Below are positions 29,821 through 60,858 of a stretch of DNA of 64,000 bases, piece by piece. Source of the DNA: an uncultured Eubacteriales bacterium (GTDB lineage: Bacteria > Bacillota > Clostridia > Oscillospirales > CAG-272); the NCBI GenBank assembly GCA_934385225.1, contig CAKRPQ010000001.1, positions 4,876 to 68,875 on the forward strand, in the 5' to 3' direction. The notes under the pieces were generated by a model. The model was not told the DNA's origin. It saw only the letters and a list, made by a program, of their open reading frames with translations, and did no database searches. The position numbers were made by a program, and so were the translations under genes. Position 1 is the stretch's first letter; the number at the start of each line of letters is the position of its first letter.

Positions 29821-30220
29821 TATAGTCGGGGCGGTTGTGCTTGGATTATCGCAAACGACACCCCCGACTTTGCCTCCCCTGTGTACAAGGGGAGGCGGCG
29901 GAGGAGCGCAAGCCCTCCGACGGAAGGGTTGTCCGTCTATCTGCTGACGTGTGGTCTTGCAGTCTCAATCGACGCCCTTTCTTTTGACGTAGCAGGCGCA
30001 AAAGAAAGGGCTTAGCCCAAAGAAAAGCGCCGAGAACATTTCGCCTCTCCATCGTGCTTCGGGAAGAACCGTAGGTTCTTCATAGTCGGGGCGGTTGAAC
30101 TTGGACTAAATCGGACTTCACCCCCGACTTTGCCGTCTGCGGACGGCGACAAGGGCTATGCGCCCTTGACCGCACCGCCTTTTGCAAAAGGCGGGCGAAA
30201 ACTCTCAATCAAAGGCTGGA
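29821..30220. repeat. hairpin-module array A
   Basis: Module order is b'-c-d-e-f-g-a-b'-h-i-j-k (see findings). Examples: AGTCGGGG...CCCCGACT at 29824-29869 and again at about 30084-30130; GCCGTCTGCGGACGGC at 30132-30147. Confidence 0.85.
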
Positions 30221-30226
30221 GGTCAC

Positions 30227-30958
30227 TTAATCAGAGTCCGTTCCCCAGCCGTCAACATTCGCGTTCTTCATCGCCGTGAAAACGCGATGCCGAAGCCCTT
30301 TATGCTCTCTGTCAAGTCCGTCAAGCAATTTTTTCATCTCCTCGCGTTCGGTATTCCCGTTCGCGGGACACGCCGATTTTATCACGGGCAGGTCATTTTT
30401 CGCGGCAAAATACCGCACGTCCTTTTCGGGCATATAACAGAGAGGTCTTATGAGTTTTATCCCCGTTCTCGACAGGTACGACACGGGCGAAAAGCACCCG
30501 ACGCGTCCCTCAAAAAACAAATTCAGCATAAACGTTTCCACGGCGTCGTCAAAATGATGTCCGAGCGCGACGGAAGTACAGCCGATTTCCTTTGCCGCCG
30601 AATGAAGTGCTCCGCGTCTCATTTTTGCGCAGAGAGAGCACGGGTTTTCCTCGTGTCTCACCTCAAAAACGATCTTATAGATCTCCGTCGGGACGATTTT
30701 ATATTCAACGTCAAGCTCGTCGCAAAGTCGTTTTATCGGCGAAAAATCCGTCCCGCCGTCAAAGCCCATATCGACCGTTATCGCGACAAGTTCAAACCTT
30801 TTCGGGTAGAATTTCCGCAAAGTCGCAAGGGCGCAGAGAAGCGTCAGCGAGTCTTTACCCGCAGAGACGCCGACGGCGACCTTATCGCCGTCCTCTATCA
30901 TCTTATAGTCGTCGACCGCGCGGCGGACGAAGCTCATCGGTCTTTTGGTTTCTTCCAT
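30227..30958 (-). CDS. ttcA: PP-loop ATPase, tRNA 2-thiocytidine synthase TtcA-like
   Basis: PP-loop VGVSAGKDS, plus the CSLCAKMRRG and GHHFDD blocks typical of TtcA. Confidence 0.85.
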   Translation of the reverse strand: MEETKRPMSFVRRAVDDYKMIEDGDKVAVGVSAGKDSLTLLCALATLRKFYPKRFELVAITVDMGFDGGTDFSPIKRLCDELDVEYKIVPTEIYKIVFEVRHEENPCSLCAKMRRGALHSAAKEIGCTSVALGHHFDDAVETFMLNLFFEGRVGCFSPVSYLSRTGIKLIRPLCYMPEKDVRYFAAKNDLPVIKSACPANGNTEREEMKKLLDGLDREHKGLRHRVFTAMKNANVDGWGTDSD

Positions 30959-30977
30959 ATTATATACCGTCCTTTCG

Positions 30978-31748
30978 TCAGAATGCGCAGTCCTCGTAAA
31001 TTTTTTTGAATCTGTCCGTTTCGGTCAGGTGCGACGCTTCCGAATAGACGAGCAAGGCAGGTGTTACGGAAAGCCCCGCGGCACCGCCTTTTTTTGCTTC
31101 GACGAGCACCATCGACGGAGGTGCCGCCGCGTCGGCGCAGACGAAAGTCATTTTTTTCGGTTCAAGTTTATTTTCGCGCATGGCAGATATCAGATCCGAA
31201 AGTCTGTCGGGGCGATAGACACAGTAAAAAAGTCCTCCGTAGCGCAGAAGTCTGTTCGCGGCGGCGCAGAAATCGCCGATATTTCCGCAGACCTCGTGCC
31301 GCGCGATATATTTGCCGTCGTTTTCGTTGCGTCTGCCCGCGTTCGTCTTCATATACGGCGGGTTCGTGAACACGACATCGACCTCACCGTCCGTATCCGT
31401 GCTTTTCACGTCTCTTACGTCGGCGCAGACGGCTTTTATTCTGTCCGCAAAGCCGTTTAGCGCGGCGTTACGCGATGTCAGAGCAGCAAAATCTTCCTGC
31501 ACCTCGAAAGCGTATATCCTCGCGAGTTTTCCCTTTTCGGCGCAAAGCATCGAAACGATGCCGCTTCCCGACCCCAGTTCCGCACCGCGCGCGTTCTTTG
31601 CGCCTCTCATATAAGCGGCGAGAAGATAAGCGTCCGTACCGAAAGTCAGTCCGTCCGTCTTTTGAATAAGTTTTAGATTTTCGTTCACGCCGTCAAGGCG
31701 TTCGCCGTCGAATATTTCCATTCGTTTCCTTTCGGGCGTGAGCGGCAT
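30978..31748 (-). CDS. tRNA (adenine-N6)-methyltransferase (TrmN6/YfiC-like)
   Basis: SAM motif ELGSGSGIVS and catalytic NPPY (FTNPPYM). An alternative start is MEIFDG at 31721, with AAAGGAA upstream. Confidence 0.85.
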   Translation of the reverse strand: MPLTPERKRMEIFDGERLDGVNENLKLIQKTDGLTFGTDAYLLAAYMRGAKNARGAELGSGSGIVSMLCAEKGKLARIYAFEVQEDFAALTSRNAALNGFADRIKAVCADVRDVKSTDTDGEVDVVFTNPPYMKTNAGRRNENDGKYIARHEVCGNIGDFCAAANRLLRYGGLFYCVYRPDRLSDLISAMRENKLEPKKMTFVCADAAAPPSMVLVEAKKGGAAGLSVTPALLVYSEASHLTETDRFKKIYEDCAF

Positions 31749-31759
31749 TTCGCCTGTCC

Positions 31760-32722
31760 TTACGACTTTTCCCCGACCTCGCGCAGAATATCGAGTGCGG
31801 GTGCGGGGATTCTTCCGAGCCAGTCGGGACCTACGTTCACAAGGTAGTTCACGCCTCTTTCGTTCAGTTGTTTGCGGTGATTTATGACAGTTTCGGCATC
31901 TTTCCAGTTAGTGTCATAGTATTTGAAGCCCCATGTATCATTAAGCGTTGTCGGTGCTTCGCAGAGGCGTCCGTCGCGACCCGCCATCGAAAACTCGTTA
32001 TCCTCTCCCGAAACGTAATCGCCGAGACCGTTTCCGATACGGGAGTTTACAAGGCAATCGGGCTGATAATGCTTTATCATATCGTAAAGCTCGCGGCTCT
32101 GCGCGTCGCTTATCGTCTGCGGGGTGTCGCACCAGACAAGGAAAAGATCTCCGTATTTTGTGAGAATTTCTTTCATCTGCGTTTTGATCTTGCCCTCAAA
32201 ACACTCCGTATAGTTCTTTTTGTCGTTATCGGGATAATCCCAGTCGTTCGTCCAGCTCATATAGCCGCAGTTAGTGTGACCCGTTCTGTAACCGCCGCCG
32301 TTCGGCTCGTGCCAGTCAAGATCCTGCGAGTAGTAAAGACCGAGCTTCATTCCGTGCTTACAGCAAGCCTCTGCAAGCTCCGCGATAATGTCGCGGCCAA
32401 ACGGCGTGCCGTTTTTCGAATTGAAGTTGTCCCATTCGGATTCAAAGAGCGCAAAGCCCTCGTGATGCTTCGACGTGACGACGATATATTTCATTCCCGC
32501 CGACTTTGCCGCGAGAACCCACTCCTCGGCGTTAAAATACACGGGATTAAAGACATCCGCGAGCTTTTCGTACTCCGCGTTCGGGATTCTGAAATGAGAC
32601 TGCGCCCATTCGCCGATCACGTCCATTCTTTTGCCTCTCCACTCGCCGCCGAGAACGGAATAAAGTCCGAAATGAACCATCATTCCGAAGCCCGCCTCTT
32701 TGAAAAATTCCTTGTTGTTCAT
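31760..32722 (-). CDS. alpha-L-fucosidase (GH29 catalytic domain)
   Basis: Start re-called to MNNKEFFKEAGFGMMVHFGLYS (ATG 32722, AAGGAGG RBS). Contains TSKHHEGFALF and YYSQDLDWHE blocks. Confidence 0.85.
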   Translation of the reverse strand: MNNKEFFKEAGFGMMVHFGLYSVLGGEWRGKRMDVIGEWAQSHFRIPNAEYEKLADVFNPVYFNAEEWVLAAKSAGMKYIVVTSKHHEGFALFESEWDNFNSKNGTPFGRDIIAELAEACCKHGMKLGLYYSQDLDWHEPNGGGYRTGHTNCGYMSWTNDWDYPDNDKKNYTECFEGKIKTQMKEILTKYGDLFLVWCDTPQTISDAQSRELYDMIKHYQPDCLVNSRIGNGLGDYVSGEDNEFSMAGRDGRLCEAPTTLNDTWGFKYYDTNWKDAETVINHRKQLNERGVNYLVNVGPDWLGRIPAPALDILREVGEKS

Positions 32723-32791
32723 AATTTCCTCCTTGAAATTGCCGTAATATTGATTTACACTTTTATTATAGCTGTTTCGGGAGGAAAGTAA

Positions 32792-33580
32792 ATGACGGTT
32801 TTTGGCTTTTTGTTGTTCAAAATCGTCTTTTGCGGCGGTGTACAAATGAAAATAACAGAACTTTATACCTACGGCAGGAAAACGGTCACGGGGACATGGC
32901 ATATTTCACACGCCACGACAGTAAGCAGGCTCTATTTCCCGCACACGGGCGGAGCATATTACATTTCGGGCGGCGTGAAAACCTTCTTCGAGCCGGGGAA
33001 AGTGTATCTTTTGACGTCCTCCGAGCATTATACGCTCGGTCTTTGCGACGGTGCGTCGTTCGACCACACCTATTTTGACTTCGACATCATTCCGCCGCTC
33101 TCGTCCCCGCTGATTCTGCCCGCCGCAGGGGTTCTGTCGCACGCGTGCAGATACTGCGACGAATTGATTTCGGAATTTCGGGAACGTCCCGACTGGCTCG
33201 CCGATTTTATGACGGCGGAGCTTGACAACATACTCCTTTTCATCGAAAAAACAGAATACCCGCAGAGGGTTTCGGACGCACGCATTGAAGAAGCGATGAG
33301 CTTCATACGCGAAAATTTCTCGCGACCGATAACGGTAAGCGACATAGCGGCTCGCGTTCATCTTGAAAAAACGTATCTTATCGAGCTGTTCAAAAGGACG
33401 GTGCGCATGACGCCGCACGTCTATCTGCGCGCGTATCGCCTCGACCGTGCGGAGGCGATGTTAAGATCGGGAATATCCGTCGGTGACGCCGCGCTTCTTT
33501 GCGGTTTTGAGAGTACCTCGTCCTTTTCGCACACTTTCAAAAAATCGCGCGGATACCCGCCCGCGGAATTTCGCCGATAG
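32792..33580 (+). CDS. AraC-family transcriptional regulator, divergent from the fucosidase
   Basis: C-terminal double HTH (ITVSDIAARVHLEKTYLIELFKR...GFESTSSFSHTFKK). ATG 32792 has GGGAGG 7 nt upstream. An alternative start is MKITELY at 32846. Confidence 0.85.
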   Translation: MTVFGFLLFKIVFCGGVQMKITELYTYGRKTVTGTWHISHATTVSRLYFPHTGGAYYISGGVKTFFEPGKVYLLTSSEHYTLGLCDGASFDHTYFDFDIIPPLSSPLILPAAGVLSHACRYCDELISEFRERPDWLADFMTAELDNILLFIEKTEYPQRVSDARIEEAMSFIRENFSRPITVSDIAARVHLEKTYLIELFKRTVRMTPHVYLRAYRLDRAEAMLRSGISVGDAALLCGFESTSSFSHTFKKSRGYPPAEFRR

Positions 33581-33651
33581 AGGCAAGGCAATACCGAAAA
33601 ACGGTGCTGCCGCTTTCGTGACAACACCGCTTCCATATGTACCTTTCGGAA

Positions 33652-33825
33652 TCAGTCTTCCTTGGGTGCGCCTACGGGACAGACACCTGCGCAAGCACCG
33701 CACTCGATGCACTTTTCGGGATCGATAACGTACTTACCGCCGTCCTCGGAAATAGCTTCTACGGGGCACTCGCTCGCGCAAGCTCCGCAGCCGAGGCATT
33801 CTTCTTCGTTAATCTTATAAGCCAT
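33652..33825 (-). CDS. 2x[4Fe-4S] ferredoxin (57 aa; below the ORF-track cutoff)
   Basis: MAYKINEEECLGCGACASECPVEAISEDGGKYVIDPEKCIECGACAGVCPVGAPKED contains two CxxCxxCxxxCP motifs. GGAGG RBS. Confidence 0.85.
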   Translation of the reverse strand: MAYKINEEECLGCGACASECPVEAISEDGGKYVIDPEKCIECGACAGVCPVGAPKED

Positions 33826-33946
33826 GGTTTTACACCTCCAAAATATTTATGATGTTAATATTGTACCACATTTATCGTAAATTGCAATAGTTTTGCGTAA
33901 AAAATTTATTACCAATTCTTAAAATATGCGTTTTTTCGCGCGTAAA

Positions 33947-35257
33947 TCAGCTCTCCGCGTCGGGTTCTTCCGTCAGATCTGTCTGCATATCGTCTGTTTT
34001 ATTCGGCATTTTCAGAACCTTGACCGTATCTCTCTTGTAATATTTGGGTGCGGCGTCCGCCTTTTCGTTGAGTTTTACGCGCACAAGACCCGCTATCGGG
34101 TTTATCTCGGTGACGTTGCCCACGCCGTCCTCTGTTCTGACGAGCGCACCGACGGGCGGCGTTACGCGCAGCTCCGCCCGGTACGACTCATGCTCGTAGC
34201 GCAGGCAACACATAAGTCTGCCGCAATTGCCCGATATTTTTGCGGAATTGAGCGAAAGTCCCTGCTCCTTTGCCATTTTTATCGACACCTGAACGAAATC
34301 CGAGAGAAATCTCGCGCAGCACAGCGGTCTGCCGCACGCGCCGAGACCTCCCATCAGCTTCGATTCGTCTCTTATGCCTATCTGGCGCAGCTCTATGCGC
34401 GTTCTGAACACGGACGCAAGGTCCTTTACAAGCTCTCTGAAATCCACTCTGCCCGCGCTTGTGAAGTAGAAGAGGAGCTTGCTGTTATCGAACGTATATT
34501 CAACATCGACGAGCTTCATATCAAGCCCGTGCGCCTCAATCTTGCGTAAACCGATAACGAAAGCCTCTTTTTCCTTCTTCTTGTTCTCCTCGGCGCATTT
34601 TTTATCCTCCTCCGTCGCCTGTCTTATGACGGGACGAAGCGGCTTTACTATATCGCTCTCGCGAACGCTCTTGTTTCCCGCCGCGACGCAGCCGTATTCA
34701 ATGCCGCGCGCGGTTTCGACGACGGCATATGCGCCCGTCTTTATTTTAAGCTCGCCGGGGTCAAAATAATACACCTTTCCCGACGGCTTGAAGCGCACAC
34801 CTATAACGGTGACAAGCGACGCGGGATCGGTTTCCTCTTCCCGCGGCATGGTATTTTCGGGAGTGACGCCGAATGCGGCACCGTCCTCGCGGAGATTTTC
34901 GTTTATGCTTATATTTATGTTTTCCCCGAAAGCGGAAATTTCGGGCGCGAAAGCGGGAGCATTTTCTTTTTCGCTTTCATTTTCGTTTGCGCCTGTGTTT
35001 ACGTTTTCGGCGCGTTTTTCCCTGCGCTGAAAATCGCGGTCGCCGAAATTGCGGTTTTTTCTCGGTCTGAAATCGGTGTCGCCGTTCTGCGCGCCGTCGT
35101 TTCTTCTGCGTTCCGCGCCGTTCTGCGCGCCATTCGGCTCACCGTCCTTTTTCGGGCGGCAGTACGGGCGCTTTCTGCCGTAATGCGCGCTTCTGCCCTC
35201 TCCGCTTTTGTTTCTGTCCTGTGCGCCGTCGGCGCGTGTGTTCTTTTCGCTGTCCAT
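33947..35257 (-). CDS. ricT: PSP1-domain protein RicT/YaaT with a ~147-aa basic low-complexity N-terminal extension
   Basis: The PSP1 core is VRFKPSGKVYYFD...DVEYTFDNSKLLFYFTSAGRVDFRELVKDL...CGRPLCCARFL...CGRLMCCLRYE. It lies directly downstream of holB, as in Bacillus. Confidence 0.85.
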   Translation of the reverse strand: MDSEKNTRADGAQDRNKSGEGRSAHYGRKRPYCRPKKDGEPNGAQNGAERRRNDGAQNGDTDFRPRKNRNFGDRDFQRREKRAENVNTGANENESEKENAPAFAPEISAFGENINISINENLREDGAAFGVTPENTMPREEETDPASLVTVIGVRFKPSGKVYYFDPGELKIKTGAYAVVETARGIEYGCVAAGNKSVRESDIVKPLRPVIRQATEEDKKCAEENKKKEKEAFVIGLRKIEAHGLDMKLVDVEYTFDNSKLLFYFTSAGRVDFRELVKDLASVFRTRIELRQIGIRDESKLMGGLGACGRPLCCARFLSDFVQVSIKMAKEQGLSLNSAKISGNCGRLMCCLRYEHESYRAELRVTPPVGALVRTEDGVGNVTEINPIAGLVRVKLNEKADAAPKYYKRDTVKVLKMPNKTDDMQTDLTEEPDAES

Positions 35258-35288
35258 ATATGTAATATCCTTTTCTATTCAATAAGAC

Positions 35289-36320: not shown

Positions 36321-36361
36321 TTTCGCCCGTCCTCCTTTTTTCGCTCTCGTTAAATTATAGC

Positions 36362-36398
36362 AAAAAAAATTCCCGATGTCAAGTGGTAACATCGGGAA
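36362..36398 (-). terminator. rho-independent terminator after the U32 peptidase gene
   Basis: TTCCCGATGT (36370-36379) pairs with ACATCGGGAA (36389-36398). The minus strand then reads TTTTTTTT (36369-36362). Confidence 0.6.
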
Positions 36399-36418
36399 TA
36401 GGTATGTCGGAATTATAT

Positions 36419-37675: not shown

Positions 37676-37774
37676 ATTTTTTCCTTTCAGAGAGGTTTTC
37701 GAGTTGTTGAAAATTCTTTTTCAAAGCAATTTGTCATTTTGTTTAATCAAATGAAGCCGACTCCCGCTTTTTCT

Positions 37775-38056
37775 CCCATGCGACAGGCGCTCTCTCTTTT
37801 TAGCCTCCCTTGTGTAAAGGGAGGTGGATTGCCACGAAGTGGCAAGACGGAGGGATTGTTTCTACACCGCCGTGAAGATATGCAGTCCCGTTTTCCACTT
37901 TTTCTTTGACACCACAGGCGCAAAGATAAAAGCATAGATGCCTTCGGCATCTCACAAAAAGAAACGCCGAGAACATTTCGCCGTCTGCGGACGGCGACAA
38001 AAGGCTCTGCCTTTTGAATCCGCAAGCCTTTGAAAAGGCTTGACCTAAACTTTATA
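37775..38056. repeat. hairpin-module array B
   Basis: Contains GCCTCCCTTGTGTAAAGGGAGG, GCCGTCTGCGGACGGC (37980-37995), AAAAGGCTCTGCCTTTT (within 37996-38020) and CAAGCCTTTGAAAAGGCTTG (38023-38042). It lies downstream of the radical SAM gene. Confidence 0.85.
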
Positions 38057-38071
38057 ATCGTTTTTTGCCTG

Positions 38072-38932
38072 CTATTTCCTTTTCGCGGCAAAGCCGCAGG
38101 ACGCGCAGAGAGGTTCGCGGAAAATGCGGTGTTCAAGGTCGTACCGCAAAGTTCTCGCGCGAGCCGACAGGAGAATTTCGCCGAGCGTATTTTCGTATAT
38201 ATTTCCGAGCGGAATCCTGCCGTTCCTGTCAAGGCAGCATGGCACGACAGTTCCGTCCGCGAGGACAGCCGTCTGCGTCAGAAGTCCGTGGCAGAGCGCG
38301 TTTTTTCCGCAGTCGCGGGGCTTGTCCGTCTCTTTCGCGTCGGGCCAGTCGAATTTTTCTCCGTATTCGACAAAAACGTGCGTCGCGATGCGCACTCCGC
38401 GATGATTTTCGACCCACTCCTCCCTTTCGGGCGGAAAATTTTTACGCGCGCGGGCGAGAATTTTTTCGTTAAGTGTGTTTTTTCCGCCCTCGCCGTCGTT
38501 CCAGAGGCGCAGAACGGCAAATTTACCGTTTTCGGCGAGCGTTTTCGCCGCGGAAAAGCAGTTTTCGAGATATTCGTCGAAATCCCCGCCGTCCGCGTTC
38601 GCCTCAAACGAGTGGAGCGAAACGCAGACCGTTTTAAGCCTTTCGCTTCCGAGAAGAGTCGGCAGTTTTTCGCGGAGGAGCGTTCCGTTCGTCGTTATCT
38701 TGACAGAGGACGGAAATTCGTCCGCAATTTTGAGTATTTTATCAAGTTCGGGGTGCAGAAGCGGCTCGCCCATAACGTGCAGAAAGATATTTTCGGGCTT
38801 TTCGCCCGAAACCGCCCTCATCGCCGCGCGGAATTCCGCGGGCGACATAAAGCGCGCTTCCCTCTCGTGTCCGGGGCAGAACGAACAGGCAAGATTGCAG
38901 ACATTCGTAATTTCAATATAAATATTCTTCAT
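38072..38932 (-). CDS. radical SAM protein with a C-terminal SPASM/twitch-like Cys cluster
   Basis: The CNLACSFC (CxxxCxxC) motif is at aa 12-19. C-terminal cysteines are ...CHGLL...VVPCCLD...CASCG. Confidence 0.85.
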   Translation of the reverse strand: MKNIYIEITNVCNLACSFCPGHEREARFMSPAEFRAAMRAVSGEKPENIFLHVMGEPLLHPELDKILKIADEFPSSVKITTNGTLLREKLPTLLGSERLKTVCVSLHSFEANADGGDFDEYLENCFSAAKTLAENGKFAVLRLWNDGEGGKNTLNEKILARARKNFPPEREEWVENHRGVRIATHVFVEYGEKFDWPDAKETDKPRDCGKNALCHGLLTQTAVLADGTVVPCCLDRNGRIPLGNIYENTLGEILLSARARTLRYDLEHRIFREPLCASCGFAAKRK

Positions 38933-38965
38933 AGGAAAAAGCGCGGATATCGCGGGCGCAGAGTA

Positions 38966-39595: not shown

Positions 39596-39655
39596 TTCAC
39601 TACCTCCGTTTTATAAAATATTAACATATCCGCGCGCATAAGTCAAGAGAAAATC

Positions 39656-39684
39656 TTGACAAAAACGAAAAGAGGTTATATAAT
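39656..39684 (+). promoter_or_regulatory. sigma-A promoter for pepF (exact consensus)
   Basis: TTGACA (39656-39661), 17 nt, TATAAT (39679-39684). Confidence 0.6.
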
Positions 39685-39717
39685 AACCTTAAAATATATT
39701 ATAAAAGGAGAATGAAA

Positions 39718-41520: not shown

Positions 41521-41541
41521 TTTGGGTTAAAGATACAAAAA

Positions 41542-41576
41542 GAAAACAGGGATTTTACGATCCCTGTTTTCTTTTT
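41542..41576 (+). terminator. rho-independent terminator after pepF
   Basis: GAAAACAGGGA (41542-41552) pairs with TCCCTGTTTTC (41561-41571), followed by TTTTT. Confidence 0.7.
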
Positions 41577-41599
41577 GTTTTCGGAGAGCGGGAGGGAAA

Positions 41600-42275
41600 T
41601 TCGGGCTTCACCGCGACTTCGCCTTTTGTGCTGTATGTCGGGAAGAATCCGCAAGGATTCTTCATAGGTGGAGCAGTTTATACTTGGATTTTATTAGACT
41701 TCACCTCCACCTTCGCCTTTTGTGCTGTATGTCGGGAAGAATCCGCAAGGATTCTTCATAGGTGGAGCAGTTTATACTTGGATTTTATTAGACTTCACCT
41801 CCACCTTCGCCTTCCCCGGTGGCGGGAAGAGACTTTCCATAAAGGAAAGTCAGACCGCGATAGCGGTGGATGAGGTGTTGCGAACACTTTTAGCGGAACT
41901 TCACGTCGTGTTTAGGCTCCCTTGTGTAAAGGGAGCTGTCACCGCAGGTGACTGAGGGATTGTCTATCCGCCGAGGTGCAGTCGTGCAGCACCATTTAAC
42001 GCCTTTTCTTTTGGTGTTGCAGGCACAAAAGAAAAGGCTTTGCGAAAAGAAAAGTGCCGCAAGAGGGTTTCGCTCTCTGCGGAGAGCGACAAGGGCTATG
42101 CGCCCTTGACCGCACTCGCCTTTTGAAAAAGGCGAGACCCAAAACTTTCGACAAAGGCGAGGTGAAAACTTTCAACAAAGGCTTGACCTAAACTTTCACT
42201 AACTTTTTTGCCTCCCCTTTATTCTTTGATAAAGGGGAGGTGGCACGAGCGCAGCGAGTGACGGTAGGGTTCTCC
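41600..42275. repeat. hairpin-module array C
   Basis: Module order is (a-b)x2, c, d/e, f (42001-42038), g, h' (42072-42087), i (42088-42110), j (42115-42136), k, plus an extra CCTCCCCTTTAT...ATAAAGGGGAGG hairpin at about 42211-42240. It lies between convergent pepF and spoIIE. Confidence 0.85.
41617..41814 (+). repeat. 94-bp tandem duplication inside array C
   Basis: 41617-41710 and 41711-41804 are identical when read base by base. The first ~10 nt of a third unit follow. The duplication produces twin ORFs at 41628 and 41722. Confidence 0.9.
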
Positions 42276-42282
42276 TTCCCCG

Positions 42283-45002: not shown

Positions 45003-45039
45003 AAAAAAAGCGACGGGCAAAATACCTGTCGCTTTTTTT
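45003..45039. terminator. terminator downstream of spoVM (bidirectional architecture)
   Basis: A-run, then GCGACGGG (45010-45017) paired with CCTGTCGC (45025-45032), then a T-run (45033-45039). Confidence 0.6.

Positions 45040-48929: not shown

Positions 48930-48930
<1 letters not shown>
45223..48930 (-). CDS. addA: ATP-dependent helicase/nuclease subunit A
   Basis: UvrD-type Walker A AAAGSGKT, helicase motifs throughout, and a C-terminal RecB-type nuclease (GVIDLVF...DYKTD). The ATG shares one base with the addB stop (TAATG). The AGGAGG RBS lies inside the addB tail. Confidence 0.93.
48430..48459 (-). repeat. hexanucleotide repeat encoding ENENENDNDNEN in AddA
   Basis: The plus strand reads ATTGTC GTTGTC GTTTTC GTTTTC GTTTTC. 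Confidence 0.9.
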
Positions 48931-52286
<3,356 letters not shown>

Positions 52287-52298
52287 ATCCCGTCCTCC

Positions 52299-53090: not shown

Positions 53091-53112
53091 GCTCTTTTAC
53101 GTCCCCTTTCGG

Positions 53113-53937: not shown

Positions 53938-55880
53938 CAGACGTCCGTTTCCTCGTATATTTCGAGAAGCCTGTTCTCTATTTCCGTTTTTCTCTCGTCC
54001 AGCTCTGCCGCGCGCATATAGTCGCTCGCCGCCTCGCCGTAAAGTTCTTCTTCAACCTTTTGAAGCTCCTCTTCGAGCTTTTTCGCCTCGTTTTTCAGCC
54101 GTTCGATGCGCTTCTGTTCGCGCCTTATGTCCGCCTGGCTCTGCTTTGCGGCAAGGTACTGCTCCCTCTCCGAGGTGTTCTTTTCCGCTCTGCTCTCCGT
54201 AACGCCCGCCTTTTCGCGTCTCGTCTCCCTGAACGCTCTGTATTCGTCGTAGGCGTGACCGTCCCCGCCGCACCTGAAATCGAGCAGCTCGTCCGCCAGT
54301 CCCGCGGGCTTTATCTCTATTATCCGCGTCGCCAGCTTGCTGATGAAATATCTGTCGTGCGAAACGGTGACAACAGTCCCGTCGTATTTTTCGAGCGCCT
54401 CTTCGAGCGCCTCGCGCGAGCCGATGTCAAGGTGGTTCGTCGGCTCGTCGAGAATGAGCAGATTCATTTTAGAGAGTATCAGCTTCGAGAGGGTGAGTCT
54501 TGCGCGCTCGCCGCCGCTCAGCACCGACACCGTCTTATAAATGTCGTCTCCGAAAAAGCGGAAGAGCGCGAGCGTGTTTCTTATCTCCGTCTCCGTCAGC
54601 GTCGGATAGGCGTTCCAAAGCTCGTCGAGTACCGTGTTTTCGGGAGTCAAATTCTGATTTTCCTGGTCGTAGTAGCCGATTTCGACGTTATACCCGATTT
54701 CGACGCTTCCGCCCGTCTGGCGGAGCTTGCCGAGCAGGATCTTTATGAGCGTGGACTTGCCGCACCCGTTCGCGCCGACGATAAACACCTTTTCGTTCTT
54801 CTTCACAAGGAACGAGAGGTCGTCAAAAAGTCTCTTTTCGCCGAACGCCATCGAAAGGTGCTTCACTTCAAGCACGTCGTTTCCGCTTTCGAGTCCTTTT
54901 TTGAACGTGATGCGTATATTTTTCGGGTCTTCCTGCGGTTTTTCGAATTTCACCATCTTGTCGAGGAGCTTCTGACGGCTCTCGGCGGCAATGATGTTCC
55001 TCTCGCGGTTCCACGCGCGCTGCTGTTCGATGTACGCTTCCTGTCTCGCTATCTCCTTCTGCTGGTTGCGGTAGCGTCTCTCCGCCGCCTCGCGGTCGGC
55101 TTTTCGCTTCTCCATACTCTCGGTGTAAGAGCCGCCGTAGAGCTTCGCCGTATGGAATTCGACGCAGAGCGTTTTGTTCGTCACGCGGTCAAGGAAATAG
55201 CGGTCGTGCGAGATGACGAGGACGTTCTTTTTGTACTGAACGAGAAAATCTTCGAGCCACGCGAGCGTGTCCGCGTCGAGGTGGTTCGTCGGCTCGTCGA
55301 GGAGGAGTATATCCGGCTCGCGGCAGAGAAGTCTTGCCAGCGCAAAACGCGTTTTCTGTCCTCCGCTGAGCGACGAGAGCGGTTTTTTCGCGTCCGCGTC
55401 GTCAAAGCCCATCTTTTTCAGTATCGACATCGCGCGGCTTTTATATTCCATACCGCCCGACGCGATAAATTTGGCGTAAAGCTCTGTATATTCGTTTGTT
55501 AAAATGCGGTATTCTTCGCTTTTCGAGTCGTGCGACTTTTCGCCGAGGAGCTTTTCAAGCTCCGCTATGCGTCTCTCGGCGCGCACAAGTTCGGGAAACG
55601 CCGCGTACATCTGCTCGCCGACGCTCCCGCCGCATATGTCCGACGTCTCAAACGCGCCGTCCTGCGTGAGAAGTCCGACGGTCTTGTCTTTTGATATATA
55701 AACAGAGCCGTGCTCCGGCTCGTATTCGCCCGTTATCAGCTTGAAAAGAGTCGATTTTCCAGACCCGTTCACGCCGATTATGCCGAGCTTGTCGCCCTCT
55801 TCAAGCGAAAAGGACACGTTATCGAGTATCACCTTCGTTCCGACGGAGAACCCAAGGTTTTCTACACTTATTGCAGTCAT
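53937..55880 (-). CDS. ABC-F family ATPase (Uup/YheS-like, no TM domain)
   Basis: Two ABC cassettes (GVNGSGKST / GANGCGKST; LSGGQKTR / LSGGERAR) with an inter-domain linker and a C-terminal coiled coil. Confidence 0.9.
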   Translation of the reverse strand: MTAISVENLGFSVGTKVILDNVSFSLEEGDKLGIIGVNGSGKSTLFKLITGEYEPEHGSVYISKDKTVGLLTQDGAFETSDICGGSVGEQMYAAFPELVRAERRIAELEKLLGEKSHDSKSEEYRILTNEYTELYAKFIASGGMEYKSRAMSILKKMGFDDADAKKPLSSLSGGQKTRFALARLLCREPDILLLDEPTNHLDADTLAWLEDFLVQYKKNVLVISHDRYFLDRVTNKTLCVEFHTAKLYGGSYTESMEKRKADREAAERRYRNQQKEIARQEAYIEQQRAWNRERNIIAAESRQKLLDKMVKFEKPQEDPKNIRITFKKGLESGNDVLEVKHLSMAFGEKRLFDDLSFLVKKNEKVFIVGANGCGKSTLIKILLGKLRQTGGSVEIGYNVEIGYYDQENQNLTPENTVLDELWNAYPTLTETEIRNTLALFRFFGDDIYKTVSVLSGGERARLTLSKLILSKMNLLILDEPTNHLDIGSREALEEALEKYDGTVVTVSHDRYFISKLATRIIEIKPAGLADELLDFRCGGDGHAYDEYRAFRETRREKAGVTESRAEKNTSEREQYLAAKQSQADIRREQKRIERLKNEAKKLEEELQKVEEELYGEAASDYMRAAELDERKTEIENRLLEIYEETDV

Positions 55881-55889
55881 ATCAGTTCC

Positions 55890-56528
55890 TTAAAATCTTA
55901 TCTTCATTTCTTTCGCGACGCCGAGAATGCGCGCGTCTCCGCACTCAAAATCTTCGGGCGTCAGCACTATCGGTTCGTAATCTTCGTTTTCGGGGACAAG
56001 GTATATGCGGCGGTTTTCGGTGTGGTATCTCTTGACCGTCGCGCTTTCGCCGTCGACAAGGCAGGCGACGATGTCGCCCTCCTCCGCGTACTGCTGCTTT
56101 CTGAAAAGAACGAGCGAGCCGTTCACCATACCGCAGTTCTTCATACTGTCGCCGAACACCGAGAGGTAGAAGTAGTCCCGCGGGTCTTCGCCGCGCGAAA
56201 TGTCCGCCGTCTCGTAGCCGATCAGCGTTTCGTTCGTGATTATAGGTTTTCCCGCTCTTATCTCGCCTATTATGGGTATCCGAATGTTTCCGCCGATCTC
56301 CTCTTCGTCCGTGAGCGAAATTTCCGAGAGATCGACGTCGTCGCCGACGAGTTTCGAGATGTCAACGCCGAAATAATCCGCGATGAGGCGCATCTTATCC
56401 GCCTTCGGCACACTCCTGCCGTTTTTCCAGTCGGAAAGCGTCGAGGGCGCAATTCCCGTAGCTTTTGCGACCTTATATGAGGTCGATTTTTTCATATTCA
56501 GCAGTTTTTCGTAATTCGAATAACTCAT
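55890..56528 (-). CDS. XRE-HTH + S24 peptidase repressor (LexA/CI-like, self-cleaving type)
   Basis: The N-terminal HTH is YKVAKATGIAPSTLSDWKNG. A candidate cleavage site is RAG-K. The Ser is in FGDSM and the Lys in TVKRY. AAGGAG RBS. Confidence 0.85.
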   Translation of the reverse strand: MSYSNYEKLLNMKKSTSYKVAKATGIAPSTLSDWKNGRSVPKADKMRLIADYFGVDISKLVGDDVDLSEISLTDEEEIGGNIRIPIIGEIRAGKPIITNETLIGYETADISRGEDPRDYFYLSVFGDSMKNCGMVNGSLVLFRKQQYAEEGDIVACLVDGESATVKRYHTENRRIYLVPENEDYEPIVLTPEDFECGDARILGVAKEMKIRF

Positions 56529-56581
56529 ATATAACCTGTCTCCTTTTTGTGCAAAACGACAAAACTTCCAAAATAGGAAAG

Positions 56582-56638
56582 ATTTCCGAAATATGCACTT
56601 GACAATAGTTCGGTTTTGCGATATAATAGTTCCGAAAT
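56582..56638. promoter_or_regulatory. two 11-bp palindromic candidate operators bracketing the divergent promoter
   Basis: ATTTCcGAAAT at 56582-56592 is a perfect palindrome. AGTTCcGAAAT at 56628-56638 has one mismatch. The motif AATAGTTC(C/G)G also occurs twice (about 56604-56613 and 56626-56635). Confidence 0.4.
56599..56627 (+). promoter_or_regulatory. sigma-A promoter (exact consensus) for the Zn-ribbon/sigma-like gene pair
   Basis: TTGACA (56599-56604), 17 nt, TATAAT (56622-56627). Confidence 0.6.
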
Positions 56639-56759
56639 GTGAACTACGCTGTCCGCTATCCGAAAAGCCCCGTTTTCGGTTTGCACGATTTACAGTTCAG
56701 TATATCACATTTCCCCTCAAAAGTCAACACATAAAAGCATTTAAGGAAAGGAACAATGA

Positions 56760-56993
56760 ATGACGAGAAACGAAAAAAATTATCTGAAAAGCTCTGAATG
56801 TGAAGGTGAAAAGCCGAGGTACTGCCGTGTTTGCGGCGAAATTATACCGAAAGGCTGTTACTATGTGAATTTCAGAGGAAAAAGCGTATGTTGCACCTGC
56901 ACATTCGAAATGAAGTCGGAGGAAATAATTCGGATTTGCGAACTCAAATCGCCCGAGAAAACGCCTGACAGGCACGGATTTACGCATGAATGA
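56760..56993 (+). CDS. small Cys-rich (zinc-ribbon-like) protein
   Basis: 77 aa with CRVCGEIIPKGC...CCTC. AAGGAAAGGA RBS. It overlaps the next gene by 8 nt. Confidence 0.5.
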   Translation: MTRNEKNYLKSSECEGEKPRYCRVCGEIIPKGCYYVNFRGKSVCCTCTFEMKSEEIIRICELKSPEKTPDRHGFTHE

Positions 56994-57390
56994 TTTCCTC
57001 GGGGTATCTGCCGTGCAAAAAGAAAAGACAAAGACCGTCGAATTTCTCGAAAGTTACAGAACGAACAAGCGAATGCTCGATATGATGCGCTACGAAAAGG
57101 ATTATTTTTCGGACAGAGAGCGCGGCACGGAGGCGGAAAAGGACGATTTTCTGCTGCTTCCGGGCGGCGACGAGGTTCTGCTGAAAAACAGAATGTACAC
57201 CGTGCGCCGCTTCATTATGAGCCTTGGCGACAGCGACCAGAAAACGCTGCTTTTTTACCACTACATAAAAGGATTTTCGGTTGAAAAGTGTGCGGAGCTG
57301 ATGAACATAGGCAGAACGAGCGCATTCCGCCTGAAAAAGAAGGCACTCGAATCGGCGAAGAACGTGTACGACGAGAAATTCACCGCATAA
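56986..57390 (+). CDS. sigma-70 region-4-like / ArpU-type small transcriptional activator
   Basis: 134 aa. The C-terminus QKTLLFYHYIKGFSVEKCAELMNIGRTSAFRLKKKALE is a region-4 HTH. The N-terminus LESYRTNKRMLDMMRYEK resembles phage/ICE late activators. Confidence 0.65.
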   Translation: MNDFLGVSAVQKEKTKTVEFLESYRTNKRMLDMMRYEKDYFSDRERGTEAEKDDFLLLPGGDEVLLKNRMYTVRRFIMSLGDSDQKTLLFYHYIKGFSVEKCAELMNIGRTSAFRLKKKALESAKNVYDEKFTA

Positions 57391-57402
57391 AAGAAAATAT
57401 AT

Positions 57403-57434
57403 AAAAAAACAGGGACGAAAGTCCCTGTTTTCTT
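57403..57434 (+). terminator. rho-independent terminator (GNRA tetraloop)
   Basis: A-run, then CAGGGAC (57410-57416), loop GAAA, GTCCCTG (57421-57427), then TTTTCTTGTT. Confidence 0.65.
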
Positions 57435-57454
57435 GTTAAACGACCGTGAGGTTG

Positions 57455-58135
57455 TTTTTTAGCCTCCCTTGCCATAAAAAGTCGGTAAAAGTTTTGGTCA
57501 ACCTTTTTCAAAAGGGTGCAGATTCAAAAGGCAGAGCCTTTTGTCGCTCTCCGCAGAGAGCTAAGTCGGGGGTGAAAAAAGCGATGACCTCAATTCTACC
57601 GCCCCGACTATGAAAACCCTACGGTTTTTCCCGAAGCACGATGTGGAGGAGAAATGTTCTCGGCGCTTTCTTTTTGTGAGATGCCGAAGGCATCTATACT
57701 TTTATCTTTGCGCCTGTCGCATCAAAAGAAAGGGCGTTATTGGATACTATGCAACCGCACGGCTACATTAGCCTCCCGTTGTACTTCGGGAAAAACCGTA
57801 GGGTTTTCATAGGTGGAGCAGTTTACACCCTCTATTATTGCAGACCTCACCTCCACCTTTGCCTCCCCTGTGTAAGGGGAGGTGGCGGAGGTGCGCAAGC
57901 CCTCCGACGGAAGGGTTGTCCGTCTGCGTGCCGCCGTGAAGTCGTGCAGCACTCATTAACGCTCTTTCTCTTGATGCGACAGGCGCAAGAGAAAGAGCTT
58001 CGCAGAAAGAGAAGCGCCGAGAATGTTTCGCCGTCTGCGGACGGCGACAAGGGCTATGCGCCCTTGACCGCACTCGCCTTTTGTAAAAGGCGAGACGAAA
58101 ACTTTCAGTCAACGGCGAAGCTAAACTTTCACCCG
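57455..58135. repeat. hairpin-module array D (two sub-arrays in inverted orientation)
   Basis: The left half (about 57480-57770) carries modules k,j,i,h,b',a,g,f as reverse complements. The right half (about 57785-58135) carries a,b,c,d,e,f,g,h,i,j,k forward. Confidence 0.85.
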
Positions 58136-58139
58136 TCCC

Positions 58140-58403
58140 TCATATCTGTTTATGAACGCTCTTATATTCATCATAATACTTATAATACGGGCAGCCTCTC
58201 ACGCTCCGCGAAACAAACGCAAGCATTTCGTCCTCATCAAGCGACATCATACAGCGATAGCAGTCCTCGTCCTCATCGTAATCGTAATATTCGCATTCCT
58301 CGCAGCAGGTACTTCTTTTCCGTGCGGACGGCAGCTCTTTTTCCTCTTTTTCGCGCTCCGACTTCGGCACATAATGCGTTTTATCCCATGCTCCGTCGCT
58401 CAT
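58140..58403 (-). CDS. small acidic Cys-rich protein (DUF6472-like, tentative)
   Basis: 87 aa with CCEECEYYDYDEDEDCYRC...LDEDE...CPYY. It overlaps the GtrA-like gene by 4 nt. Confidence 0.6.
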   Translation of the reverse strand: MSDGAWDKTHYVPKSEREKEEKELPSARKRSTCCEECEYYDYDEDEDCYRCMMSLDEDEMLAFVSRSVRGCPYYKYYDEYKSVHKQI

Positions 58404-58825
58404 TTTCCGCTCTTTCCTTTCCTGAAAACGATCAGTTTACTTATGAAATAGTTCAGAATGACCACAATGACGGACGCCGCGATCTTCACGGCGTATTTAT
58501 TATATTTGAGCCTATCGTAAAGTCCCCAGACGATTGCCTCCTGCAAGAGGAGCGTAAGAACTCTTCCGCCCGCGAACTCCGTTATCTCGCGCACGACGGG
58601 CAGAAAACCTCTCGCGCGGCTTTCAAAGACCCATATTTTATTCGTCACATACGCGAACGCGACGGCGGCGCACCATGCGGCAACGTCCGAAACGTGCACA
58701 TTCGTTTTCGTCCTGTAAAGGAGAAAACTGACGGCAAAATCGACGACGGTCGTAAGTCCGCCGAAAATGAGGTACATAAGCGCCTCGCGGTATTTAATGA
58801 CGAGATTTTTGATTTTTTCGAACAT
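58400..58825 (-). CDS. GtrA-family membrane protein
   Basis: 141 aa with 4 TMs. LMYLIFGGLTTVVDFAVSFLLY is a typical GtrA N-terminus. Confidence 0.8.
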   Translation of the reverse strand: MFEKIKNLVIKYREALMYLIFGGLTTVVDFAVSFLLYRTKTNVHVSDVAAWCAAVAFAYVTNKIWVFESRARGFLPVVREITEFAGGRVLTLLLQEAIVWGLYDRLKYNKYAVKIAASVIVVILNYFISKLIVFRKGKSGK

Positions 58826-58831
58826 TTACCT

Positions 58832-60256
58832 TTACCCACCGATTTTGTAGGTTGTTCCCTCGCGCGAATCGACGAGAGTTACGCCCTTATCCGAAAGATA
58901 CTTGCGTATTTCGTCCGCTCTCGCGAAATTCTTCGCCTTTTTCGCCTCTGCGCGCTCCGCAATAAGGCTTTCTATCTCCTTTGCAAAGTCCTCGTCGATT
59001 TCGGGCGTGCTCGGCTCTGCGTTTTTCAGTTTTTCGGCGTGCGCGACAAGGTCGAGCGACAGAACGCGGTCAAAATCGGCGACAAGCGCGAGCTTTGTCG
59101 CGTCACCCGCGCCCGATTTAAGCACGTCGTAGAGAGCGGTCACGGCGAGAGACGTATTGAGGTCGTTATCGAGTGCGTCGGTAAAGCCTTTTTTAAGCTC
59201 TGCGAACTTCGCCCCGTCGACTTCCCCGTCCTCTTTAAGCGTCGCGATCTTCTTTATGAGTTTATCGTATGCGACGGCGGCATTGTCGAGATTTTCGTAG
59301 CTGAAAACGAGCGACTTGCGGTAATGCGAGCCGAGGCAGAAGAAGCGGTACACCATCGGGTCGTATCCTTTTTCTTCGAGGAGAGAGACGGTGAGGAACT
59401 CGCCCTTTGACTTCGACATTTTGCCGTTTGTAGTGTTGAGGTGATGGACGTGGAACCAATAGTTGCACCACTTATGACCGAGATAAGCCTCGGACTGCGC
59501 GATCTCGTTCGTATGATGCGGGAAAGCGTTGTCGATGCCGCCGCAGTGAATATCGAGATATTCGCCGAGGTGTTTCATCGAGATGCAGGAACATTCGATG
59601 TGCCAGCCGGGGTAGCCGACGCCCCAGGGCGAATCCCATTTGAGCGCCTGGTCTTCGAACTTCGATTTTGTGAACCAGAGGACGAAATCGTTCTTGTTTT
59701 TCTTATTGTTATCGGCTTCGACGCCATCTCTGACGCCGACGGCAAGGTCTTCCTCGTCGATGTTGCCGAAAACGTAGTATTCTTTCAGCTTTGAGGTGTC
59801 GAAATAGACGTTTCCGCCCGCAATGTAGGCGTATCCCTTGTCGAGGAGCGCGGAAATGACCTTTATGAAGTCGTCAATGCAGTGTGTTGCGGGTTCAACG
59901 ACGTCGGGGCGCTTTATGCCGAGCTTTTCGCAGTCGGCGAAGAACGCGTCGGTGTAGAATTTTGCTATTTCCATAACGGTTTTGTGTTCGCGCTTTGCGC
60001 CTTTGAGCATTTTGTCCTCGCCCTCGTCGGCGTCGGAGGTCAGATGACCGACGTCGGTGATGTTCATAACGCGTTTAACGTCGTAACCGATGTAGCGGAG
60101 GTATTTTTCGAGTACGTCCTCCATGATGTAGGAGCGGAGGTTGCCTATGTGCGCGAAGTGATAGACAGTCGGACCGCAGGTGTACATTTTGACCTTGCCC
60201 GGCTCGCGCGGAATAAATTCTTCTCTTTTTCTTGAAAGTGAATTGTAGATGTACAT
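58832..60256 (-). CDS. cysS: cysteinyl-tRNA synthetase
   Basis: Start re-called to MYIYNSLSRKREEF (ATG 60256, AAGGAG RBS). HIGH is present as HFAHIGN and KMSKS is present. Confidence 0.93.
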   Translation of the reverse strand: MYIYNSLSRKREEFIPREPGKVKMYTCGPTVYHFAHIGNLRSYIMEDVLEKYLRYIGYDVKRVMNITDVGHLTSDADEGEDKMLKGAKREHKTVMEIAKFYTDAFFADCEKLGIKRPDVVEPATHCIDDFIKVISALLDKGYAYIAGGNVYFDTSKLKEYYVFGNIDEEDLAVGVRDGVEADNNKKNKNDFVLWFTKSKFEDQALKWDSPWGVGYPGWHIECSCISMKHLGEYLDIHCGGIDNAFPHHTNEIAQSEAYLGHKWCNYWFHVHHLNTTNGKMSKSKGEFLTVSLLEEKGYDPMVYRFFCLGSHYRKSLVFSYENLDNAAVAYDKLIKKIATLKEDGEVDGAKFAELKKGFTDALDNDLNTSLAVTALYDVLKSGAGDATKLALVADFDRVLSLDLVAHAEKLKNAEPSTPEIDEDFAKEIESLIAERAEAKKAKNFARADEIRKYLSDKGVTLVDSREGTTYKIGG

Positions 60257-60299
60257 TATATGTCTCCTTTGTTTTAAGAACGTTGTGTTGAGATTTGGG

Positions 60300-60855
60300 G
60301 TGCCGTTTGTTGAAAAGTGAACAACCCTTCCGTCGGAGGGCTTGCGCACCTCCGCCACCTCCCCTTACACATGGGAGGCTGAAAAACGGGGTGAAAGTTT
60401 CGCTCGCCGTTTATTAAAAGTTTTCGTCTCGCCTTTTTCAAAAGGCGAGTGCAGTCAAGGGCGCATAGCCCTTGTCGCCGCTCGCAAGCGGCGAAATGTT
60501 CTCGGCGTTTCTTTTTGTGAGATGCCGAAGGCATCTATGCTTTTATCTTTACGCCTGTCGCATCAAAGAAAAAGCGGAAAACGGGACTGCACGACTTCGC
60601 GTCAGCGGAAAAACAATCCCTCAGTCACCTATCTGCCGAGGTGAAGTCTTGCAGTGCCTATTAACGCCCTTTCTTTTGATGCGACAGGCGCAAAAGAAAG
60701 GGCTTTGCCCAAAGAAAAGCGCCGAAAAGAAGTTTCGCCGTCTGCGGACGGCGACCGCCGTCGTCGGCGGCTCACGCAAACTTTTGAAAAAGTTTGATCA
60801 AAACTTTTAACAAGCGGCGAGACGAAAACTTTTAACAAACGGCGAAACTTTCGTC
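60300..60855. repeat. hairpin-module array E, between cysE and cysS
   Basis: Reverse-orientation modules d,c then k,j (60428-60449), i (60454-60476), h'' (60477-60492), g,f,e,d. These are followed by forward e, f (60666-60703), g, h (60737-60752), an extra CCGCCGTCGTCGGCGG hairpin, and k-like AAAACTTTT repeats. Confidence 0.85.
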
Positions 60856-60858
60856 GTT

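Follow-up and report, generated by a model that had tools for sequence, protein, structure and literature searches.

An intergenic family of mosaic hairpin repeats with a covarying three-hairpin core in uncultured gut Clostridia

Analysis of a 64-kb stretch of DNA from an uncultured human-gut Clostridia bacterium (the window, in what follows) reveals that five intergenic arrays, A to E, are built from seven copies of one collinear unit of ~280–370 nt each. The part of the unit that is conserved beyond this species is a core of ~90 nt that contains three different hairpins in a fixed order, and selection on Watson-Crick pairing, acting symmetrically on both DNA strands, maintains these hairpins. 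With moderate confidence, we regard the arrays as an undescribed family of non-coding, non-autonomous, mosaic DNA palindromes, copied in trans and reshuffled by recombination, which would be the counterpart in gut Oscillospiraceae of the repetitive extragenic palindromes (REPs) and bacterial interspersed mosaic elements (BIMEs) of enterobacteria.

The three-hairpin core, its covariation and its spread

Comparison of the window with itself by BLAST returns sizeable repeats only at 29868–30193, 37799–38053, 41535–42138, 57486–58134 and 60321–60845, which are the five arrays singled out in an initial annotation of this sequence, and nothing comparable elsewhere. The short modules proposed in that annotation (a, b or b′, c, d, f, g, h, i, j and k) are all recovered with few mismatches and only inside the arrays, shuffled sequence giving 0–1.7 matches. 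Their order, which had been called largely collinear, is upon alignment of the pieces that of seven collinear units, with A, B, C, D2 and E2 on the + strand and D1 and E1 on the − strand. Each unit runs c, d, spacer, f, g, h, i, j and tail (k). The modules are not independent of one another, and g to k make up the core, which can be written as TTTCGC-[stem-TGCG-stem]-GCGACAA-[stem-loop-stem]-TTGAC-[stem-loop-stem]-AAAACTTT. Its hairpins h, i and j measure 20–24 nt apiece. Hairpin h has an 8-bp stem, counting the TCGC/GCGA flanks, and a TGCG loop; GCGACAA leads into hairpin i; TTGAC(C) precedes hairpin j, the stem of which holds a T run and an A run and is followed by AC(N)AAAACTTT. Folding of one unit gave z-scores, relative to its own shuffles, of −6.7 (DNA, + strand) and −7.2 (RNA, − strand).

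Stem statistics were derived from a model-guided alignment of 136 copies, a separate MAFFT alignment serving as an independent check. In the former, 95.4% of the stem cells are paired, both partners have changed in 21 of the 25 pairs, and 476 cells are compensatory. None of 500 shuffles matches these pairing values, and sliding the 3′ partners by 1–3 columns leaves 44–52% of the cells paired. In the MAFFT alignment, 90.3% of the stem cells are paired and 17 of the 25 pairs carry double changes. The structure is unchanged in the 29 copies that lie outside the selection made by the search pattern described below, and these copies covary also at the positions that the pattern holds fixed (GACAAGGG/CCCTTGAC, GACCAGGG/CCCTGGAC and GACTTAGGGG/CCCCTAAG). 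The modules, nearly all of which had been described as stem-loops from the window alone, are thus hairpins with strong covariation. Among 3263 stem cells, 3088 are Watson-Crick pairs, 24 are G·T and 32 are A·C. Structured RNAs, when transcribed, tolerate G·U on their own strand, and the same cell reads A·C on the opposite one. As G·T and A·C are equally rare here, the constraint is symmetric between the strands, and because of this symmetry it appears to fit DNA hairpins or cruciforms, or hairpins required on both strands, better than a single RNA strand.

The spread of the core was followed in two ways. A covariance model of the 3′ core (R1), trained on 108 copies, finds exactly seven core copies in the window (E-values between 2.7e-31 and 1.8e-21) and 140 matches in 643 kb of related loci. 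An exact scan with the core pattern CTGCGGASRGCGACAARRGSY, using one genome per species (GTDB), yielded at least 117 stretches, four of which are chance matches in coding DNA of unrelated phyla. At least 113 true stretches therefore lie beyond the window, in at least 51 species-level metagenome-assembled genomes (MAGs), so that the family is not confined to the stretch in which it was noticed. These MAGs, all of uncultured organisms, are labelled Oscillospiraceae, Ruminococcus sp., Acutalibacteraceae, Huintestinicola, Eubacteriales or Clostridia, and the sample sources named in their titles are goat, sheep, deer and Hadza human. The core pattern has no match in viral contigs, and BLASTN of one unit against plasmid and phage collections gave none either. 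The invariant elements TTTCGC, TGCG, GCGACAA, TTGAC and AAACTTT are kept throughout the at least 51 species, while the stems merely covary. Upstream of the core, the 5′ parts of the units fall into at least eight subfamilies that have nothing but the core in common, the 5′ modules being lineage-specific. Several subfamilies follow a looser plan, in which a pair of long hairpins is followed by a TTCACCC...GCG stretch, then by a variable hairpin, GGGG(A/T) and the core. Long mosaic arrays also occur in other MAGs, with modules on either side of the core.

Placement, layout and strain turnover of the arrays

Placement was counted with a codon-scored gene caller, which agrees with the recorded gene calls of the window contig. 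All but two of the 153 core copies (151) are intergenic. The gaps that hold copies are tandem in 50 cases, convergent in 23 and divergent in 6 (6/79), against a background of 194, 62 and 65 (65/321), respectively; this under-representation of divergent gaps indicates that gaps containing promoters only are avoided. On the tail side, the neighbouring gene is convergent in 96 cases vs. 45, and in 81 vs. 29 when it lies within 200 nt. Both orientations are found in tandem gaps, where the unit is antisense in 34 cases and sense in 22, so that its orientation is not fixed relative to transcription. Adjacent copies without an intervening gene (n = 15) face each other with their heads in 12 cases, with their tails in 2 and are in tandem in 1; arrays D and E are such heads-facing doublets. 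The flanking genes are unrelated housekeeping genes, and the positions of the copies are not conserved between species. Clustering of 632 predicted flanking proteins gave no recurring family beyond common housekeeping paralogues, and the genes between core pairs are ordinary, with no transposase gene between any pair. The conserved core has no promoter or terminator signal of its own, some consensus matches being found inside the arrays; the reverse complement of hairpin h precedes a T-rich run in copy E2 only. In two related MAGs, core copies adjoin an L10 leader and a small signal recognition particle (SRP) RNA gene (L015:6212–6370, L023:2520–2619; numbers with the prefix L designate the related loci and strain contigs compared with the window). 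The elements thus also settle beside RNA genes and leaders.

In the window, the initial annotation had placed the arrays always between genes, with a total of ~2.6 kb, and this is borne out: all five are intergenic, the coordinates given there sum to ~2.6 kb, and each array finishes 0–16 nt off the stop codon of a − strand gene. Array A (29821..30226, + strand) is one unit composed of a b′ hairpin, c, d, f, g, an inserted a+b′ cassette, h, i, j and the tail, which stops 7 nt short of the stop codon of the − strand gene 30227–30958. Its core copy (30115..30232, +), comprising hairpins h, i and j and an AAAACT tail, scores 79 bits with R1 (E = 8.7e-25), and the cassette between g and h (30046..30128, +) is flanked by TTCGCC (30040–30045) and TTTGCC (30129–30134). 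Array B (37775..38071, +) is also one unit, with c, a d-like module, a variant of f with an additional AGATGCCGAAGGCATCT hairpin, g, h, i, j and the tail, and abuts the stop codon of a radical-SAM gene (38072–38932, −); core copy B (37963..38080, +) is the best R1 match, with 97.7 bits and E = 2.7e-31. Array C (41600..42282, +), located between the convergent genes pepF (+) and spoIIE (−), starts with two tandem a+b cassettes, continues with four small extra hairpins and one unit (c, d-like, f, g, h, i, j), and ends in three tails and a terminal GCCTCCCC...GGGGAGG hairpin. Its first cassette (41617..41710, +; 94 nt) starts with CTTCGCC and is missing from strains L151, L153 and L155 in the alignment; the second (41711..41804, +; 94 nt) is followed by a third CTTCGCC, and core copy C (42055..42179, +) scores 93.5 bits (E = 7.4e-30).

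The remaining two arrays are doublets occupying both strands. Array D (57455..58139) lies between convergent genes and consists of two heads-facing units with their tails outward, D1 (−) and D2 (+), each containing an a+b cassette; the tail of D2 stops 5 nt from the stop codon of a DUF6472 gene (58140–58403, −). Core copies D1 (57469..57578, −) and D2 (58013..58132, +) score 69.6 bits (E = 1.8e-21) and 95.5 bits (E = 1.6e-30), respectively. Array E (60300..60858), between cysE (60859–61587, −) and cysS (58832–60256, −), likewise comprises two heads-facing units, E1 (−), followed by inverted c and d modules, and E2 (+), the tail of which abuts the cysE stop codon. Core copy E1 (60390..60509, −) scores 90.1 bits (E = 1.2e-28), and core copy E2 (60720..60839, +), in which hairpin i is present as another allele, CCGCCGTCGTCGGCGG, scores 70.8 bits (E = 6.4e-22). 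The segment 41535–41580, which self-BLAST joins to array C, resembles an ordinary intrinsic terminator. The + strand genes ahead of arrays C and D end in near-alike intrinsic terminators of this kind, at 41535–41580 and 57404–57436 (AAAACAGGGA...TCCCTGTTTTC). A comparable hairpin with an A run, a stem and a T run is an internal module of the units of other subfamilies, and the elements may therefore carry or capture terminators.

Comparison within and between genomes reveals both homogenisation and turnover of modules. Mean core identity is 0.815 within a genome vs. 0.689 between genomes, and several MAGs contain copies that are 99–100% identical at separate loci. Divergence is greatest among the seven window copies, whose core identities are 0.54–0.90, and every stem is nonetheless intact. 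Arrays C, D and E vary among strains in which the flanking protein is identical. The intergenic length is 749, 400, 346 or 303 nt at array D, 602, 615 or 861 nt at array E and 668, 685, 762 or 779 nt at array C, and is near-constant at array B (396 or 377 nt). In array D, the inverted D1 unit is missing in some strains; in array E, entire hairpins are exchanged for other alleles, and one strain has an additional block of ~260 nt; in array C, strains have either one or two copies of the 94-nt a+b cassette, each opening with CTTCGCC, and this difference combines in all four ways with a second indel of 17 nt. These differences look like the swapping of whole modules and not like point mutation. 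Loss, duplication, allelic replacement and change of orientation, the kinds of difference that the initial annotation had listed among the arrays, are thus seen in the window as well as among strains.

The a+b cassette (83–94 nt) is a separate unit that comes and goes alone. Among all the related DNA compared, its six copies occur in the species of the window only, in three kinds of positions: between g and h, before c, and at the head of array C. All six window copies are flanked by TT(A/C/T)GCC, and hairpin b of the cassette is preceded by ATAG. This arrangement beside TT(N)GCC resembles the insertion of IS200/IS605-type elements 3′ of a fixed tetra- or pentanucleotide. In the minimal doublet of the core (L100), the ends show neither a terminal inverted repeat nor a target-site duplication, and the two arms are different stem alleles.

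Known families, mobilising enzymes and competing explanations

The initial annotation had likened the arrays to BIME- or BOX-type mosaics of a family that it could not name. Both parts are supported, no naming match having been found in Rfam, in plasmid and phage collections or in the literature. With Rfam 15, the only match in the window at the gathering score is tRNA-Pro, and array D gives noise of at most 20 bits at E ≤ 10; 140 kb of related loci gave four matches (T-box, tRNA, SRP RNA and L10 leader), none of which overlaps a core copy. Searches of the literature by sequence string and by topic recovered general papers on REPs and on REP-associated tyrosine transposases (RAYTs), and no description of the family. 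The likeness to REPs and BIMEs is nevertheless extensive. In both cases the palindromes are short, imperfect and rich in GC, carry a conserved unpaired tag and are present in tens to hundreds of copies; they are extragenic, mostly located 3′ of genes or in operons, and form mosaic clusters of alternating orientation; and they are homogenised within the genome, vary between strains in their arrays and have neither a terminal inverted repeat nor a target duplication. Head-to-head dimers predominate among REPs (PMC3733652), as do the heads-facing pairs here, with 12 of the 15 adjacent pairs. On the other hand, the conserved part of the present family is made of three different hairpins in a fixed order over ~90 nt, whereas a REP is one hairpin of 20–40 nt; one core sequence is found over at least 51 species, with units of 280–370 nt that include lineage-specific extra hairpins; and the host, unlike those of the enterobacterial and Pseudomonas REPs, is Gram-positive and anaerobic. 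Neither Firmicutes nor Clostridia are mentioned in the 2013 catalogue of tagged REPs (PMC3733652).

Other families share some of these features. BOX elements of Streptococcus pneumoniae are intergenic repeats composed of boxA, boxB and boxC, with a variable number of modules, stable stem-loops and no transposase of their own. The two families have in common modular intergenic repeats in a Gram-positive host, a variable module number, predicted stem-loops and the lack of an own transposase, whereas BOX has three module types with boxB in tandem and the present arrays combine about ten types with a core of three hairpins in fixed order and with inverted doublets. No relation in sequence to BOX was noticed, no direct alignment having been made. 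The subterminal hairpins and the lack of terminal inverted repeats and target duplications are shared with non-autonomous elements derived from IS200/IS605 (palindrome-associated transposable elements, PATEs) and other substrates of HUH enzymes, from which the arrays differ in that no TnpA or TnpB was found, no clear bias towards the lagging-strand template is seen, and mosaic arrays take the place of discrete pairs of left and right ends. A CRISPR array was rejected, for there is no repeat-spacer periodicity, the units have several hairpins and the window proteins scanned contain no cas domain. CRISPR-like solo repeats, integron attC sites and Spo0A, cre and CodY boxes were dropped by eye, as their defining motifs do not fit.

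Mobilising enzymes were searched for in six frames, using RayT and IS608 TnpA sequences and then a hidden Markov model (HMM) built from 120 homologues, in the window and in ~1 Mb of related DNA. The window proteins have housekeeping, transport and sporulation functions only. The initial annotation had noted that the window contains no transposase, RAYT or Cas gene, and this stands: neither the window proteins scanned with Pfam nor the precomputed domain lists of the remaining ones include such a domain, and the HMM of RAYT homologues has no match in the six frames of the window. Apart from the loci retrieved for homologues, the ~1 Mb of related DNA contains one RAYT-like gene, located in a core-bearing MAG (L058:1570–2073). 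It matches the NCBIfam entry REP_Tyr_transpos (NF047646) with E = 7.6e-15 and 55 bits, under the curated cut-off of 80, and Pfam Y1_Tnp with 20.6 bits. This gene has 1545 homologues at E ≤ 1e-10, the few named ones being transposases or RayT proteins of Oscillospiraceae, Ruminococcaceae and Ruminococcus. It lies 1.45 kb from a core copy, with a cellulase gene in between, and the REPs inside or next to it are classical, GTAGGG-tagged ones. RAYTs of group 1 are reported to occur also in Clostridia (PMC5581495).

Classical GTAGGGG REPs are frequent in the related loci (e.g., L014:142–628, L019:1214, L046:1749–1967 and L079:2885) and absent from the window. They consist, as in GTAGGGGCGACCATTGGTCGCCC and GTAGGGGCGCACAGTGTGCGCCC, of a single hairpin with a GTAG tag and are associated with RAYTs, in both of which they differ from the core. 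About half of them are situated within 500 nt of a core copy, i.e. in the same intergenic arrays, in many related MAGs. A REP-RAYT system thus exists in this clade and has arrays in common with the core. The RAYT-like open reading frames (ORFs) of three Oscillospiraceae MAGs contain an inverted pair of the REP-like sequence GTAGGGCGGGGGCTTGCTCCCGCC, ~190 nt apart (L058:1681–1704 and 1857–1880; L157:3112 and 3305; L162:3121 and 3314). The position of this pair is kept among homologues that are 60–70% identical, and it seems to be a REP pair embedded in its own transposase gene. In another Oscillospiraceae MAG (L162:2361–5034; also L163–L166), a RAYT-like gene lies between cysE and cysS, its start overlapping the end of cysE. 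This is the junction that array E occupies in the window (58832–61587), and the HMM search finds no RAYT remnant in array E.

Taken together, the family works like REPs and BIMEs and is not itself a member of them, because it has neither a GTAG nor a CGTC tag and its three-hairpin core of ~90 nt is found in more than 50 species. The core would be its working part, to which lineage-specific hairpin modules are attached on the 5′ side, with the a+b cassette, in the species of the window, sitting at TT(N)GCC sites. Copies may be made or moved in trans by an enzyme that is encoded elsewhere and recognises folded single-stranded DNA, our best guess being a RAYT- or IS200-type HUH/Y1 enzyme, and recombination and slippage between copies would then build and reshuffle the arrays. 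Most copies closely follow a stop codon or lie within operons, for instance cysE-cysS, and are therefore probably transcribed by read-through; the folded RNA could secondarily act as a stabiliser of 3′ ends or intercistronic regions and possibly protect the upstream mRNA. REPs are known to act as mRNA stabilisers of this type.

Several observations weigh against copying in trans by such an enzyme. No enzyme is linked to the core in the window or in the ~1 Mb of related DNA, unlike in REP/RAYT systems; the RAYT-like gene of L058 and its homologues go with the separate GTAGGGG-type REPs and not with the core, and the surroundings of RAYT homologues in two other species (54 kb) contain GTAGGG(G) REPs and zero core copies. 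The tags of the core are TTTCGC and GCGACAA, not the GTAG or CGTC of REPs. A bias relative to the G-rich, inferred leading strand is not clear (48 vs. 38), while single-strand HUH elements usually show a replication-strand bias. The copies of the window, 54–90% identical, are not recent insertions, and the differences between strains could come from recombination alone, without transposition. Finally, conservation of the core sequence over more than 50 species goes further than REP families usually do and could reflect a host function. More tentatively, the three-hairpin core may be not merely a selfish REP but the recognition substrate of a trans-acting system common to gut Oscillospiraceae, such as a domesticated single-strand DNA enzyme other than a GTAG-type RAYT, or a host factor for the chromosome or for RNA processing. 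We consider this possible, at lower confidence than the interpretation as a REP/BIME counterpart; it would explain why one 90-nt grammar is found in more than 50 species, why the stems covary and why the copies are homogenised in each genome.

Part of the evidence could also be read in terms of structured RNAs, either multi-copy small or medium non-coding RNAs or cis-acting elements of 3′ untranslated or intercistronic regions, selected at the RNA level for stability, processing or termination, with the DNA repeats being no more than the genes of these RNAs. The covariation is very strong, the unpaired linkers and the loop of hairpin h are conserved, units stand right after stop codons and inside the likely cysE-cysS operon, and the fold z-score as RNA is −7.2; moreover, the h loop, c(UGCG)g in the unit + orientation, presumably belongs to the stable UNCG tetraloop class. 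This explanation appears unlikely to us in view of the pairing data, with G·U in only 0.8% of the stem cells and no commoner than A·C, whereas real RNA families tolerate G·U far more, and on the transcribed strand only. Units are also oriented both ways relative to their neighbours (34 antisense and 22 sense in tandem gaps), match no Rfam family and have no convincing promoter or terminator, and the near-identical, genome-specific copies as well as the swapping of modules between strains are the behaviour of repeats and not of RNA genes. The strand-symmetric Watson-Crick constraint, the sequence invariants kept over at least 51 species while the stems covary, and the lack of a mobilising gene in the window, in the flanks or between core pairs would agree with a core that serves as binding site(s) of a conserved host DNA-binding protein involved in nucleoid structure, topoisomerase action or chromosome organisation, the repeats persisting through their use by the host; gyrase and integration host factor (IHF) act on BIMEs. 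To this we assign a similarly small probability as to structured RNAs. Copy positions differ between species and arrays between strains, each genome homogenises its copies, there is no known candidate protein, and the free covariation of the stems is better explained by extrusion of hairpins or cruciforms than by readout of a duplex sequence.

The heads-facing doublets, on the other hand, might be complete elements of which core and tail form the terminal inverted repeat, the units being miniature inverted-repeat transposable elements (MITEs) derived by deletion from a DDE-type insertion sequence. Twelve of the 15 adjacent pairs are indeed inverted with their tails outward, likeness within genomes exceeds that between genomes, and contigs break at arrays. 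We find this improbable, as the ends of the minimal doublet lack a target-site duplication, the arms of doublets are different stem alleles spaced 23 to 666 nt apart, most copies are solo, no pair encloses a transposase gene, and the copies of the window are too diverged for recent bursts, yet their pairing is kept. An origin of the arrays as assembly artefacts, chimeric joins or collapsed repeats can practically be dismissed. The family has been seen in MAGs only, and contigs of other samples, six in number, end inside array A, which is attributable to a genome-wide repeat disrupting short-read assembly. Array A is, however, the same in four independent assemblies made with different assemblers (99.85–100% identity over 677 nt), arrays B, C, D and E are also recovered with intact flanks in several independent assemblies, and covariation over at least 51 genomes cannot arise by misassembly.

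Other features of the window and significance of the family

Three further features of the window were recorded. The 5′ half of tRNA-Pro is copied directly (11563–11602; 40 nt, 39/40 identical) 217 nt upstream of the intact gene (11782–11857), and the adjoining stretch of low GC content (0.43; about 10000–14000) encodes a DUF3644 protein (11903–13042); the partial copy and this stretch may be an integration scar or a small island. An ORF of 1058 residues at 13680–16856 (−) has weak Pfam matches below the cut-offs (GH106 rhamnosidase, GLMA-like) and is accompanied by an ORF of near-equal length on the opposite strand (13638–16736), so that either strand may be the coding one. Directly upstream of array D, at 55890–57390, a LexA-like repressor gene (HTH_3 and Peptidase_S24, −) is divergent from genes for proteins of 77 and 134 residues, the latter with a DUF1492 match just over the cut-off and a weak match to sigma-70 region 4 under it; this pair of a repressor and small genes looks like a phage-type regulatory switch.

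The repeats take up ~4% of the 64 kb analysed here and fill about half of the large gaps between its genes, and they fragment metagenome assemblies of abundant uncultured gut Clostridia. The covariance model would allow such elements to be masked or annotated in catalogues of MAGs, and their strain-level variation beside housekeeping genes such as cysE/cysS, pepF/spoIIE and tilS-like could serve for typing. With a core in more than 50 species and a purely Watson-Crick type of covariation, the family extends the REP/BIME phenomenon to Gram-positive gut anaerobes. It offers a concrete substrate for testing the many RAYT-like genes of this clade and bears on whether tag-less palindromic repeats own an enzyme, a question also posed by the CGTC-type REPs, which are without a known transposase (PMC3733652). 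If the core is indeed the substrate of a trans-acting system, it would represent a tractable new partnership between a repeat and an enzyme in abundant uncultured gut bacteria.

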